Below, in pieces: positions 24,035-27,719 of a stretch of 64,000 bases of DNA; positions within the stretch are counted from its first letter, which is position 1; every line of letters begins with the position of its first letter. The position numbers and the translations under genes were made by a program. The notes under the pieces were generated by a model. The model saw nothing but the letters and a program-made list of their open reading frames with translations. It ran no database searches and was not told where the DNA came from. Where the stretch lies: the NCBI RefSeq assembly GCF_055900595.2, contig NZ_CM148325.1; one strand, given 5' to 3'.

Positions 24035-25363
24035 TTACTGCCAGCTAATCTGCGCCCTGCCGTTTTTCTTACTCTTATACAGCCGCTCATCCGCCAGCAT
24101 TTTCAAACGTTCAACGGTGGTACATTCATTTGAATGCGCTACACCGATACTGGTGCTCAAGTTAATACTCCCCACCTGGAAATGGACGATTTCTTTTAGA
24201 ATCGATAGCAACTCCTCCAGCGTTCCGCCAGTATAAATCACCGCAAATTCGTCACCGCCGAAGCGGTAGACTTTACCTTTATCTACCGGGATTTGTGATT
24301 TAAGGATTTTCACCACTTTCATCAACACTTCATCGCCCAGCAAATGACCGAAGGTGTCGTTAATGTTTTTGAATTTATCGACATCAAAAAGACACAGATA
24401 GCCCCCTTTTTCCGGCAGGGCTTTTAAATCTTCATCAAAGGATTTTCTGCCCATTGCTTTGGTCAGGTCGTCCAGAAACGCCGAGTTATACATACTGTAG
24501 AGTTTTTTGACATCGGCAGCCGAAAAGAAAAGCCCACCGTCCAGGACGCGTTCAAAATGGTTATTAATAATGGCTTCTTTCTCCACAATGCCACGATTAA
24601 TCACTCTGCGCACCAGATAAAGGCAGCTAGCACCCGATATCACTGCCACCAATGCAGCAAAGAAAATAATCAACATACATACCTGAAAATAAACGTCTTT
24701 TTTATACGAAAATACGTACAATCCGGTCGGCAAATAGGCGAAGTGCTCCATTGCTTCCGAAACGGTGAAGATGGCGTTTTTAGCATTATATTCATCACCG
24801 GTCACCGGTTTACCGTTCTTAAACAGAGAGAACATCAGGTTCTCGCTATCCATCGCCAGCGATTTTGACAGTAAAGAAAAACGCTCCAGACCAAGCAAAA
24901 ATATCAGACTGCGATTGTGAGTTACCGGATAGAGGTAATAGACGAAGGTTTTACCGTCAAAAGAGATAAACCCTGTATTTTTGACATGTCGATACTTAAC
25001 AACCTGCATAATATCTGCACAATAATTTTTCTCGAACTCCTTTACCTGAATACATTCGTCACTGGAAATCAGATAAGGACCGACATCGTACAAATAAGAG
25101 GGTGAAACCGAGTCGGCGTAAGCTGTGCGCAAGCCAACCAACAGCTGTTCCTCCGTGGGATTTAGCGTGTTGATGAGATCAATTGCCACGCTACGCCGAT
25201 ATTCAGCAATATTTGCCACCGCAAAAGCAGTATCAATAACGGACTGTTTCAGGCCATACACCCGTTCCTTTACCATTTGAGTGTAGATCCCGCAGGCAAC
25301 TGCTGAAATCATGATAAAAATCAGCAGACTGACTGTAAGTACGAACTTATTGATTCTGGACAT
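24035..25363 (-). CDS. dgcI: diguanylate cyclase DgcI (YliF)
   Basis: 442 aa; N-terminal TM plus periplasmic domain, C-terminal GGDEF (RFGGDEFAV). Confidence 0.92.
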
Positions 25364-25370
25364 ACGTAAA

Positions 25371-27719
25371 CTACTCTTTTACTAATTTTCCACTTTTATC
25401 CCAGGCGGAGAACGGCATGGGTTTCTGGTACAGATACCCCTGAGCCTGAACACATCCTAATTTGATTAATTCGCGCGCAACGTCTTCGCTCTCTACGCCT
25501 TCCGCAATCACCGGGATCCGGTTATAGCGTGCCAGATCGAAAATAATGCGCACAATTTTCCCCGCAGTACCGAAAATATCGCCGGTAAATTGCGAGTCCA
25601 CTTTTATACTGTCTGGATTAATTTCATAAAAACGTTTCAGGTTTGACAAACCGGTGCCAAAGTCATCAATCGATATCCGTACCCCTTGTTTACGCAGTTG
25701 TTCAATATTGAGATAAAAATGTTCATTAATTCGCTCGATCACAGTTTCAGTGATCTCAACACAGAGGCTGTTCGCCTTCAGGCCATTTTCTTTCATGATG
25801 GTGGTAAAACGCTCATGAAAGTGTGGTTCGTTTAACTGCCAGGGCGAAACATTAATATGCAGTAAGAAACCGTCCTTCAGCGACGCACGCTGACTAAAAT
25901 GTCTAAATTCACCCATTGCCGTTTTAATAATCTGATAACCCAGCGCATTGATAAACCCGATATCTTCAGCAATGGTAATGAACTTCAGCGGTGAAATGAT
26001 CCCCCGCTCCGCAGACACCCAACGGCACAACGCCTCCGCGCCCAGAATGGCGCGGGTGTTAATATCAACGATCGGTTGATAGACCAGGAATAGTTCGCCA
26101 ATTTCCATTGCATGGCGAATATTACGCGCAATCCAAATATTCTCTTCTATTTCGTTGAGCTTCGCGTCATCACAGAAAATAAACTCTGAGAACATATGGT
26201 CACGGATACTGGAAATCGCCAGTTTCAGTTTTTCTGCGTAACTCCAGGCGTTTTCTCCCTGCAAAGGTTCACAAATAGCAGACTTATGGATGCGCAGATT
26301 GCGGTAGCCAAAGCTGCTGTCAAAATCGTTTATCGTCGCTATCTTACGGGTAAACGTCTGGACATTTTCCCGGCACAGGAGTAAATAAAGATCGGCATTG
26401 AATGTCACGATATCGCAGCATTGTGCATATTTCTCGGCAATTCGCTGACACAGTTTTCTGACGATTTTATTACGCTCATCGACACCAAACACCGCTTCAA
26501 CGGCTTCCAGGCCACACAGTTTGATGATCCCCACAGCCAGATACTGATTATTGTTGGACTCAATAATCGCCATATTTTTAATAAAACCGCTTTCTTGATC
26601 GTAAGAGATCAGCGAGAGCAATTTATTCGAACGTTCAATTTCGGCATCTTTCATTTCCGCGATCGAATTTTTGATGCTGATAATCTCTTTCGCATCGCCT
26701 TCGCGAATTTTCAGAGCCTCGATTTGATCCGTTGAGTCGGGCAAAAATGCCAGCGTATTAACCAGCTCGGTCATTTCAGAAAATTGCCGACGGAACACAC
26801 GAGTGGTCATTAAATAAACCACCAGCAATACGATAATAATGAAAGCAAACGGCAGATAAAAAAGTTTATCTGATGCGTTCAATAAATTACCGCCAGGATA
26901 ATAAAAATAGATTTCGAATAATGCGTTGTTTGGCACCGCTGATGTTTTTTCGATATATTCAGTATCGACAGAATCAATAATATTATAATTGCCTTCGCTA
27001 TTATAAATAATCAGTTTTTCACGAGCGAGTTGATTCTTGGCAATGATCTCATGGCCTTATTTCAAAAATAGAACTTCATCATTAGCGCTGATTTGATCAA
27101 GATACTCGTTCAGATATCGCCAGTTTAAATCGACATGAATTTTATCCACCACTAACAAATCGTGATCTTTGCCGTTGATGCGTAGCGTAAAAGAGATACA
27201 TTTTTTACCCGGACGATCAAAGCAATTGTATGCCGGATTCCAGCTGTTGTTAGAGTCATCTGAAGCCACAGACCACGGTCGTTTCGATGGGTTAAAATCG
27301 GCAAAAATAACCCGCCCTGACTCGTCGACAAGCGGTCCATTTACTTGTTCCTGATGATAAACAGCGATTTTATCATTTGCCCTCCGTGAAAAGAGATAAT
27401 ATTTATTATCATCAAGTACCAGTCCCACCGAGTCTAAAAATGGCATCATTTCCATTTTAAGGATCACAGCGCGTTGAATCTCCTCTGTATTTTTTAATAA
27501 ATACAGTGAGTCCTTTAATGTCAGGGCCGAACGTTCAATATCTTTAAAGAAATAGCCAACGTTTTTCTGAATAAGTTCAAAGCGGCTATCGGCACGTTTT
27601 ACCGCGCGTTCCGATACCAGTTGATAGTTAATGATGAAAAAAAGGCCAATAAATGACAGTGCTGCCAATAAAAATAAAATTATCAGCCTTATCTTTATCT
27701 TTTCGTATAAACTCAGCAT
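25371..27719 (-). pseudogene. pdeI: c-di-GMP phosphodiesterase PdeI (YliE), interrupted by in-frame TAA stop at codon 221
   Basis: ATG at 27719 to stop at 25371 is 2349 nt, the full length expected for a 782-aa PdeI, but plus-strand TTA at 27057..27059 is an in-frame TAA (...EVLFLK*GHEIIAKNQ...); C-terminal part keeps TM2 and the EAL motif (LGAEALCRW). Confidence 0.85.

Follow-up and report, generated by a model that had tools for sequence, protein, structure and literature searches.

A single nonsense codon has removed the full-length PdeI sensor phosphodiesterase from the Escherichia chromosome analyzed here (a stretch of 64 kb, referred to as the window): pdeI (yliE) is interrupted at codon 221, and its normal translation yields just a 220-residue membrane-anchored stub. 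The adjacent gene, dgcI (yliF), is intact and, judged by its sequence, is equipped with every motif of an active cyclase. We think that this is probably a case of recurrent and ordinary decay, neutral or nearly so, of a dispensable two-gene c-di-GMP sensor module on a cryptic clade I/ST485 chromosome. According to this explanation, a recent, clone-specific CAA-to-TAA change at codon 221 has removed full-length PdeI; dgcI, set 7 nt behind pdeI with a weak ribosome-binding site and without an evident separate promoter, most likely relies on the pdeI transcript; with 1.7 kb of that transcript untranslated, dgcI output would more likely be reduced or unchanged than released; and the c-di-GMP pool of the cell would be little affected.

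The premature stop in pdeI and the state of dgcI

The gene pdeI occupies positions 27719..25371 on the minus strand and was identified from its translation, Pfam matches and synteny. Translation gave 783 codons, with one internal stop in addition to the normal terminal stop; the frame of 782 sense codons is otherwise open, and its interruption at codon 221 makes the gene a pseudogene in the window. The premature TAA (27057..27059, minus strand) arose from a CAA (Gln) codon through replacement of C by T at position 27059, and all residues other than 221 are identical to those of the 782-aa protein of the closest genome. Based on Pfam matches and on prediction of transmembrane (TM) segments and motifs, pdeI encodes, in order, TM1 (approximately residues 10-32), a periplasmic CHASE9 sensor, TM2 (approximately residues 286-306), a degenerate GGDEF domain and an EAL domain. 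The stop falls within the periplasmic sensor domain, between TM1 and TM2. Because it precedes the second membrane helix, the 220-codon translatable stub (27060..27719, minus strand) comprises TM1, CHASE9 (Pfam match to residues 35-150, E=1.9e-63) and part of the periplasmic domain, and is without the cytoplasmic signaling (output) domain.

The remnant frame 3' of the stop, with TM2, the degenerate GGDEF domain and the EAL domain (25371..27056, minus strand), is undecayed and matches the intact ortholog. Its EAL domain spans approximately 25416..26123 (Pfam E=2.6e-69; 233.6 bits against a cut-off of 31.3), has a complete motif set (EAL562, EITE655, DDFG685, EGVE740 and QGY760) and matches solved active EAL domains, aligning over 231 residues with the solved EAL domain 5yrp (E=8e-43). 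PdeI has no GG[DE]EF; the corresponding position reads NADLY, which rules out canonical c-di-GMP synthesis by PdeI.

The uninterrupted 442-codon frame of dgcI (24035..25363, minus strand) encodes a 442-aa protein with a TM segment, a periplasmic GAPES2 domain, a second TM segment and a GGDEF domain, and both the GAPES2 and GGDEF matches exceed their Pfam cut-offs (GGDEF, 89.3 bits against 23.8). The GGDEF motif lies at residues 369-373 (24245..24259), and alignment with DgcZ (4h54) and DosC (4zve) indicated that DgcI keeps D-x-F-K-x-x-N-D-x-x-G-H-x-x-G-D and YRFGGDEF. An RxxD inhibitory site five residues ahead of GGDEF is common in this family, but is not obligatory. A search of DgcI with the pattern R..D.....GG[DE]EF gave no match, and VDKG stands at the position of this product-inhibition site; DgcI would thus not limit itself. 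The exact DgcI protein was found on at least 1,000 public contigs. A published consensus table for yliF agrees with the active-site residues of an intact DgcI (PMC3484386), and when four cyclases were expressed, the Shigella flexneri DgcI ortholog gave more c-di-GMP than the other three, in a manner that required its GG motif (PMC11327459). These results bear out the initial annotation, in which pdeI was described as disrupted and dgcI as intact with a canonical GGDEF motif.

Origin of the allele and loss of either gene in other genomes

The window is collinear across all 64 kb with NZ_CP098223, in which the gene pair is annotated as pdeI and dgcI and is 99.9% identical. The closest complete genomes, which belong to Escherichia cryptic clade I, ST485 (PMC13064198), differ from the window by three bases in 9,685 bp, one of them in codon 221, where they have CAA (Gln); over 46 kb, the window and the closest complete genome differ by 15 SNPs. 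Since these nearly identical genomes have CAA, we infer that the stop is a recent, derived C-to-T nonsense mutation. Indeed, a search of 5,426 complete E. coli genomes in RefSeq did not find the Q221* allele, and the 61-mer around codon 221 differed by exactly one base in 4,185 complete genomes and matched exactly in none. A one-base difference from the nearest complete genomes is also what a sequencing or assembly error in an actually intact pdeI would produce, but public NCBI, ENA and Logan assemblies contain the exact 220-aa stub on 217 contigs (281 index blocks), and an independently assembled ENA contig matches 8,663 bp of the window with 100% identity. Thus, the stub is the marker of a clone, and the stop is almost certainly not an error.

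We noted that the stub occurs on 217 contigs, compared to 55 for its exact intact counterpart in this haplotype, an excess that could reflect sampling or a fitter subclone. Moreover, an unrelated haplotype with 2.8% divergence (L008) carries an independent CAA-to-TAA allele of pdeI, Q209*. The Q209* and Q221* stops are 12 codons apart, both in the periplasmic domain, and each is followed by an intact remnant and an intact dgcI, possibly a hint of selection. If so, loss of the PdeI sensor with retention of DgcI would have been selected, through uncoupling of the pair or through a sensor-less phosphodiesterase fragment made by internal restart, in a spreading cryptic clade I subclone. The proximity of the two stops, the intact genes and remnants behind them and the roughly fourfold excess of stub contigs are what this idea draws on, and we regard it as very improbable. 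We also considered short "CHASE9" stubs (P0003 and some copies of P0004) as independent truncations and rejected them as assembly edges, since contigs of different haplotypes (L009-L013) end at the same base; Q209* in L008 is the sole verified independent nonsense allele.

The initial annotation treated the two genes as a local module, and as far as conservation of the unit is concerned this view holds well; its other part, a cyclase left unopposed, fares less well, as described below. The locus order is gsiABCD, pdeI, dgcI and convergent rimO, and synteny confirmed it as the orthologous E. coli pdeI-dgcI (yliE-yliF) locus. Of 5,426 complete E. coli genomes, 5,425 have the two genes side by side, the 7-nt junction between them is identical in E. 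whittamii and E. albertii, and the pair is a low-GC islet (42%, compared to 52-53% in the flanks). A paralogous pair, with full-length identities of 37% and 40%, an 11-nt overlap and a location directly upstream of bcsA-bcsB, is present on IncHI1B plasmids. These paralogs are adjacent in all 29 plasmids found in both match lists, which, as one plasmid family, amount to one extra observation. In a scan of genome contigs for the GAPES2 region with two short peptide patterns, we found the family only in Escherichia and on two contaminant contigs; with patterns so few and short, its absence elsewhere carries little weight.

Loss of one or the other gene is fairly common. Among 60 evenly spaced complete genomes sampled, seven (about 10%) had a disruption: a frameshift in pdeI in two, a frameshift or IS1 interruption of dgcI in three, an 11-nt deletion in one and deletion of the locus in one. 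Furthermore, the draft of the E. albertii type strain has an apparent -1 frameshift in pdeI. The pattern in the window, in which only the phosphodiesterase gene has been lost, is thus not general, as elsewhere dgcI is disrupted just as frequently as pdeI. We rejected Shigella-like reductive evolution as the context of the loss, since IS elements are absent from the window, which is collinear with E. coli, and general decay of the Shigella kind was not seen in the 64 kb. The only other broken gene within the window is potF. A literature search on pdeI as a pseudogene returned only irrelevant papers.

Expression of dgcI and the consequences of losing PdeI

The pdeI stop codon (TAG, 25373..25371) and the dgcI start codon (ATG, 25363..25361) are separated by a spacer of 7 nt (25364..25370, minus strand), with no space for a terminator or a promoter. 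The initial annotation correctly placed dgcI downstream of pdeI on the same strand, and its gap of 8 bp is the difference between the coordinates. The presumed promoter region of pdeI, and of dgcI, is the 177-nt intergenic region between gsiD and pdeI (27720..27896, minus strand), in which a sigma-70-like match (TTGTAA-16 nt-TAGAAT, 27833..27806) is a lead only, the promoter scan being at chance (9 matches compared to 9.6 expected). In the scan of positions 23900-28000 for sigma-70 promoters and terminators, counts equaled the shuffled expectation, and nothing rose above chance between pdeI and dgcI. Downstream, the 46-nt spacer between the convergent stop codons of dgcI and rimO (23989..24034) contains a GC-rich hairpin, CAGGCAGGGCAA...TTGCCCTGCCTG, which from its sequence is probably a bidirectional terminator that closes the pdeI-dgcI unit. 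In E. coli CFT073, pdeI and dgcI transcripts increase jointly at 37 C (PMC12890032). The 7-nt spacer, the lack of a terminator or promoter above chance level in between and this joint induction favor co-transcription.

A separate promoter for dgcI may exist, given that SELEX with the RpoN holoenzyme was reported to give a weak peak where yliE and yliF meet in K-12 (PMC8743547). We rejected a sigma-54 consensus search as evidence for such a promoter, since it gave 279 matches compared to 341 expected by chance; the single sigma-54-like match near the junction (25644-25659) is poor, with two mismatches that include the -12 GC. The dgcI gene is promoter-distal with a weak Shine-Dalgarno sequence (anti-Shine-Dalgarno duplex energy -2.4 kcal/mol, compared to +0.9 at the pdeI start), and now lies behind 1,693 nt of untranslated RNA. 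Within this stretch, some 78-nt windows have more C than G, with C/G up to 1.8 (median 0.84), and by this heuristic they are suggestive, and only suggestive, of Rho loading. Folding of the junction RNA gave z = 0.12, and thus no fold able to impose translational coupling, which argues that dgcI translation is not physically locked to that of pdeI. Given the untranslated RNA, polarity on dgcI appears at least as likely as its release.

According to the initial annotation, loss of PdeI would leave DgcI unopposed if the two act as a make-and-break pair. With PdeI an active phosphodiesterase under the relevant conditions, local c-di-GMP would then rise, in favor of sessility or matrix production. 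Conservation of the pair in Escherichia and of its plasmid paralogs beside bcsAB is consistent with this proposal, as are the full catalytic motif set of the PdeI EAL domain, the strong, GG-dependent activity of the S. flexneri ortholog, the missing RxxD site of DgcI, the unstructured junction RNA and a possible RpoN site near the boundary. However, dgcI is promoter-distal with 1.7 kb of untranslated RNA ahead of it, and it is lost elsewhere as often as pdeI. Lack of dgcI expression had been named in the initial annotation as evidence against release, and at least for K-12 this is what has been reported: under standard conditions, DgcI protein was undetectable and yliF expression was very low or none (PMC5635695). 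The accessible text of that study reports no PdeI-DgcI interaction; in its two-hybrid screen, DgcI proved toxic and could be tested only in part. Moreover, wild-type PdeI is termed a latent phosphodiesterase that is activated by the mutation G412S, as relayed at second hand in two studies (PMC11651652, PMC12890032), and its overexpression raised c-di-GMP in the first of these. We therefore consider an unopposed DgcI unlikely.

Indeed, the direction of the PdeI effect on c-di-GMP is contested. PdeI overexpression increased c-di-GMP about 11-fold and the level of PdeI tracked that of c-di-GMP in single cells (PMC11651652); in that study, the G412S mutation abolished the increase. As has been claimed for K-12, PdeI might accordingly be a net positive regulator of c-di-GMP, possibly via DgcI, in which case the nonsense allele, which removes residue 412 and all beyond it, would lower the output of the module. 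This seems quite unlikely to us, given that PdeI has NADLY in place of GG[DE]EF and a fully canonical EAL domain, that the results were obtained with overexpressed or plasmid-borne constructs, and that a role of DgcI in the increase is speculation. An equally doubtful alternative is that the allele is not null, because translation restarts internally, for instance at ATG304 (26808..26810, minus strand) after TM2. The product would be a predicted soluble, sensor-less fragment from M304 to E782 with the degenerate GGDEF and EAL domains, blind to the signal and possibly a constitutive phosphodiesterase. This candidate codon has GGUGG 8 nt upstream, which is the best Shine-Dalgarno-like match of the region (-5.6 kcal/mol) and beats both native starts; the remnant frame is wholly undecayed; and c-di-GMP is still made from S. 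flexneri GGDEF genes in which a nonsense mutation precedes the catalytic domain (PMC11327459). Yet the youth of the mutation explains the undecayed frame equally well, the fragment is known as a prediction, the site is 83 codons past the stop on RNA exposed to Rho and RNases, and native pdeI expression is low.

Thus, we favor near-neutral decay of the pair. That the pair is dispensable is indicated by the undetectable DgcI and barely expressed yliF in K-12, by the absence of the yliE deletion from the CFT073 mutants with affected motility or adherence (PMC3484386), and by the frequent disruptions in other genomes. As it stands, the allele would be of little consequence, an ordinary lineage-specific pseudogene. 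It may serve as a natural knock-out for asking in which direction PdeI shifts c-di-GMP, and whether DgcI mediates the shift, and it is a possible lineage marker within cryptic clade I/ST485-like strains.

Comparison with known systems

The closest likeness is to K-12 PdeI (YliE) and DgcI (YliF), encoded by b0833 and b0834, with the same locus, lengths (782 and 442 codons) and domain order; the window pair has approximately 97% nucleotide identity to typical E. coli. It differs from the K-12 pair in the TAA at codon 221 of pdeI and in its haplotype, which is that of cryptic clade I and is 99.9% identical to ST485 genomes. The YliE/YliF paralogs of IncHI1B plasmids (bioRxiv 10.1101/2025.05.09.653004) likewise have CHASE9-EAL followed by GAPES2-GGDEF on the same strand with a tight junction, but the plasmid genes overlap by 11 nt and lie directly upstream of a cellulose synthase operon, whereas no c-di-GMP effector gene is adjacent to the chromosomal pair.

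The PdeR-DgcM-MlrA system of E. coli embodies the same concept, in that a specific phosphodiesterase and cyclase act locally and not through the global pool (PMC5635695). In contrast to the adjacent pdeI and dgcI, the genes for PdeR and DgcM are non-adjacent and the physical interaction of their products has been demonstrated. With the GGDEF/EAL pseudogenes of Shigella and E. coli (PMC11327459), the window allele shares a lineage-specific point inactivation and possibly a translated catalytic fragment. Unlike the Shigella GGDEF pseudogenes, the gene hit here is an EAL gene, in a window free of general decay and IS elements. Both genes and their domains are already well documented, as is the tendency of E. 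coli and Shigella lineages to lose single GGDEF/EAL genes.

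The pdeI reading frame and its product

The locus has the standard Escherichia arrangement of gsiABCD, pdeI, dgcI and a convergent rimO. Translation of pdeI (27719..25371, minus strand) revealed a single internal stop, a TAA at codon 221 (27059..27057), in a frame otherwise open to its normal TAG (25373..25371), while dgcI (25363..24035, minus strand) is an uninterrupted frame of 442 codons with its GGDEF motif at residues 369-373. Thus, the initial annotation was correct that pdeI is disrupted and dgcI intact. The genes also adjoin tightly, as it described, but 7 nt separate the pdeI stop from the dgcI ATG (25363..25361), the reported 8 bp being the coordinate difference. 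At the other end, the dgcI and rimO stops flank a 46-nt spacer holding a GC-rich hairpin.

DgcI has GAPES2 (residues 26-229) and GGDEF (residues 295-437) domains, both far above the Pfam cut-off; two membrane helices flank GAPES2, the substrate- and metal-binding residues align to those of the solved cyclases DgcZ and DosC, and DgcI has no RxxD inhibitory site. In PdeI, Pfam places CHASE9 within the N-terminal 220 codons and a complete EAL domain within the remnant 3′ of the stop, with the motifs EAL562, EITE655, DDFG685, EGVE740 and QGY760. This domain aligns to solved EAL enzymes, and PdeI has no GG[DE]EF motif, the equivalent position reading NADLY. Since hydropathy predicts membrane helices at ~10-32 and ~286-306, the stop falls inside the periplasmic sensor domain; the predicted translation product is a membrane-anchored stub without an output domain. 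We considered that the remnant might still be translated. No Shine-Dalgarno-like context in the region surpasses that of ATG304 (-5.6 kcal/mol), which lies just past the second helix, and nonsense mutations upstream in S. flexneri GGDEF genes do not abolish their production of c-di-GMP (PMC11327459). Because of this context and this precedent, a sensor-less phosphodiesterase fragment is conceivable and would be a possible product of the remnant.

Origin of the stop and its haplotype

The pair is only ~97% identical to that of most E. coli, and 12 complete genomes match it at ≥99% identity. The best are Z0117EC0005 and the GEMS isolates E200086, E400634, E600003 and others, the GEMS isolates having been typed as cryptic clade I, ST485, OND:H45 (PMC13064198). 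Across 9,685 bp, 3 positions distinguish the window from these best genomes, among them 27059; their codon 221 is CAA (Gln) and their PdeI is intact (782 aa). Within the window's first 46 kb, the comparison with Z0117EC0005 gave 15 SNPs and a single indel. Thus, the nonsense mutation is very recent, which also accounts for the absence of further decay in the remnant.

An exact 61-mer centred on the stop was found in none of 5,426 complete RefSeq E. coli genomes, 4,185 of which match it with exactly one mismatch; the window's exact allele set is likewise absent from all 5,426. A sequencing or assembly artefact is nevertheless ruled out, because the exact 220-aa stub occurs on 217 contigs (281 index blocks) of public assemblies, the longest being 5.49 Mb, and an ENA contig matches 8,663 bp of the window without a single difference. 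Exact copies of the intact PdeI belonging to this haplotype were found on 55 contigs, and those of the window's DgcI on at least 1,000, although these counts, like that of the stub, vary with sampling.

Several other features of the window were noted. Overall it is Escherichia cryptic clade I/ST485-like, with closest genomes 99.5-99.97% and typical E. coli ~96-97% identical. Relative to the closest complete genome, potF (putrescine-binding periplasmic protein; 5801-6913, minus strand) carries a nonsense mutation, K56* (6746-6748), so that, of 11 SNPs in coding sequence across the first 46 kb, 2 create stops (pdeI and potF). DgcI residue 95 (window 25080) is Gly, invariant between chromosomal and plasmid paralogs, and Ala in the closest complete genomes; thus, Ala95 is derived in the reference lineage, not in the window. 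The closest genome also has two IS200/IS605 tnpA insertions that the window lacks, at window coordinates ~45997 (near ybiR/ldtB) and ~49800 (near ompX/opgE). Up to 46000, identity to this genome is 99.97%, and past it 98.9-99.5%, a decrease suggestive of a recombination boundary. An intergenic repeat of ~150 bp is present in two ~85% identical copies in opposite orientation, at 883-1032 (between artJ and rlmC) and 43060-43209 (between a DUF1479 gene and ybiT).

Disruptions elsewhere and the output of DgcI

We examined 60 evenly spaced complete genomes by a length-based check, to which nonsense SNPs are invisible, and found the pair visibly disrupted in seven: pdeI was frameshifted in two, dgcI was frameshifted in one and interrupted by IS1 in two, an 11-nt deletion of unsettled effect occurred in one, and the locus was deleted in one; some of the frameshifts may be assembly errors. 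No pattern of phosphodiesterase-only loss was seen in this sample. The opposite case, an intact pdeI with dgcI interrupted by IS1 or frameshifted, occurs in HNSQ2209, TOK-001 and 22-245. An independent pdeI stop, Q209* (CAA to TAA), next to an intact dgcI was found in GCA_053190805.1 (3501-7185 of the compared locus), on a haplotype with 102 differences in 3,685 positions (2.8%); there, an HTH_3/RelE-like gene pair follows dgcI, at the place of rimO in the window. In the type-strain draft of E. albertii NBRC 107761 (1646-1730), dgcI is intact and pdeI has an apparent -1 frameshift in a T-run at codons 26-28, which could reflect genuine slippage at a hotspot or else an error of the draft assembly. 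The homologous window sequence (27636-27644) is CTTTTTTTC.

The initial annotation proposed that loss of PdeI would leave DgcI unopposed if the pair worked as a local c-di-GMP module. However, dgcI is the distal gene of the pair, its Shine-Dalgarno match is weak (-2.4 kcal/mol), a scan found no promoter or terminator above chance between the two genes, and the 1,693 nt of RNA upstream, which contain C>G windows, are now untranslated. Since nonsense polarity is established for operons of E. coli, a lowered expression of dgcI would be no less probable than an unaltered one. Strict dependence of dgcI on pdeI is argued against by the unstructured junction RNA and by a weak RpoN SELEX peak at the yliE/yliF boundary (PMC8743547). 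In K-12, yliF (dgcI) has "very low if any expression" under standard conditions, and DgcI was among four GGDEF/EAL proteins not detectable (PMC5635695); transcripts of the two genes increase in CFT073 at 37 C (PMC12890032). Moreover, the direction of PdeI's effect is disputed: its overexpression raised c-di-GMP ~11-fold, an effect abolished by G412S (PMC11651652), and earlier work, as cited there, had G412S lowering c-di-GMP in a pdeH mutant. In CFT073, the yliE (pdeI) deletion was not among the mutants affecting motility or adherence, and the yliF deletion, unlike most cyclase mutants, increased adherence (PMC3484386). Given the distal position of dgcI, its expression in K-12, the disputed sign of PdeI and the loss patterns among the sampled genomes, we find the proposal unsupported and consider an unopposed cyclase, on balance, less likely than a polar or neutral loss.

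The gene pair as a unit

The suggestion of a local module was reasonable and is now backed by comparison. The locus was found in 5,425 of 5,426 complete E. coli genomes, and both the gene order and the 7-nt junction are kept in E. whittamii and E. albertii; in a scan limited to two short peptide patterns and one genome per species, the DgcI sensor domain was matched in Escherichia only. The GC content of the pair (24035-27719) is 42.3%, compared to 52-53% in gsiC, gsiD and rimO, which suggests joint acquisition and is consistent with a horizontal origin.

IncHI1B plasmids of E. coli carry a CHASE9-EAL gene followed by a GAPES2-GGDEF gene, whose products are 37% identical to PdeI (over 722 residues) and 40% identical to DgcI, with an 11-nt overlap between the 3′ end of the first gene and the second, which starts at a GTG. 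These paralogs are adjacent on the same strand in all 29 plasmids common to both match lists, which, as one plasmid family, count as one additional observation. The plasmid pair is directly followed by bcsA-bcsB, a plasmid-borne cellulose synthase operon, an association independently reported in a preprint (10.1101/2025.05.09.653004) and a hint at what pairs of this type may regulate. Comparative evidence thus indicates that pdeI and dgcI form a unit, and we conclude that pdeI Q221* is a lineage-specific pseudogene allele, already known in kind, of a known and dispensable gene pair.
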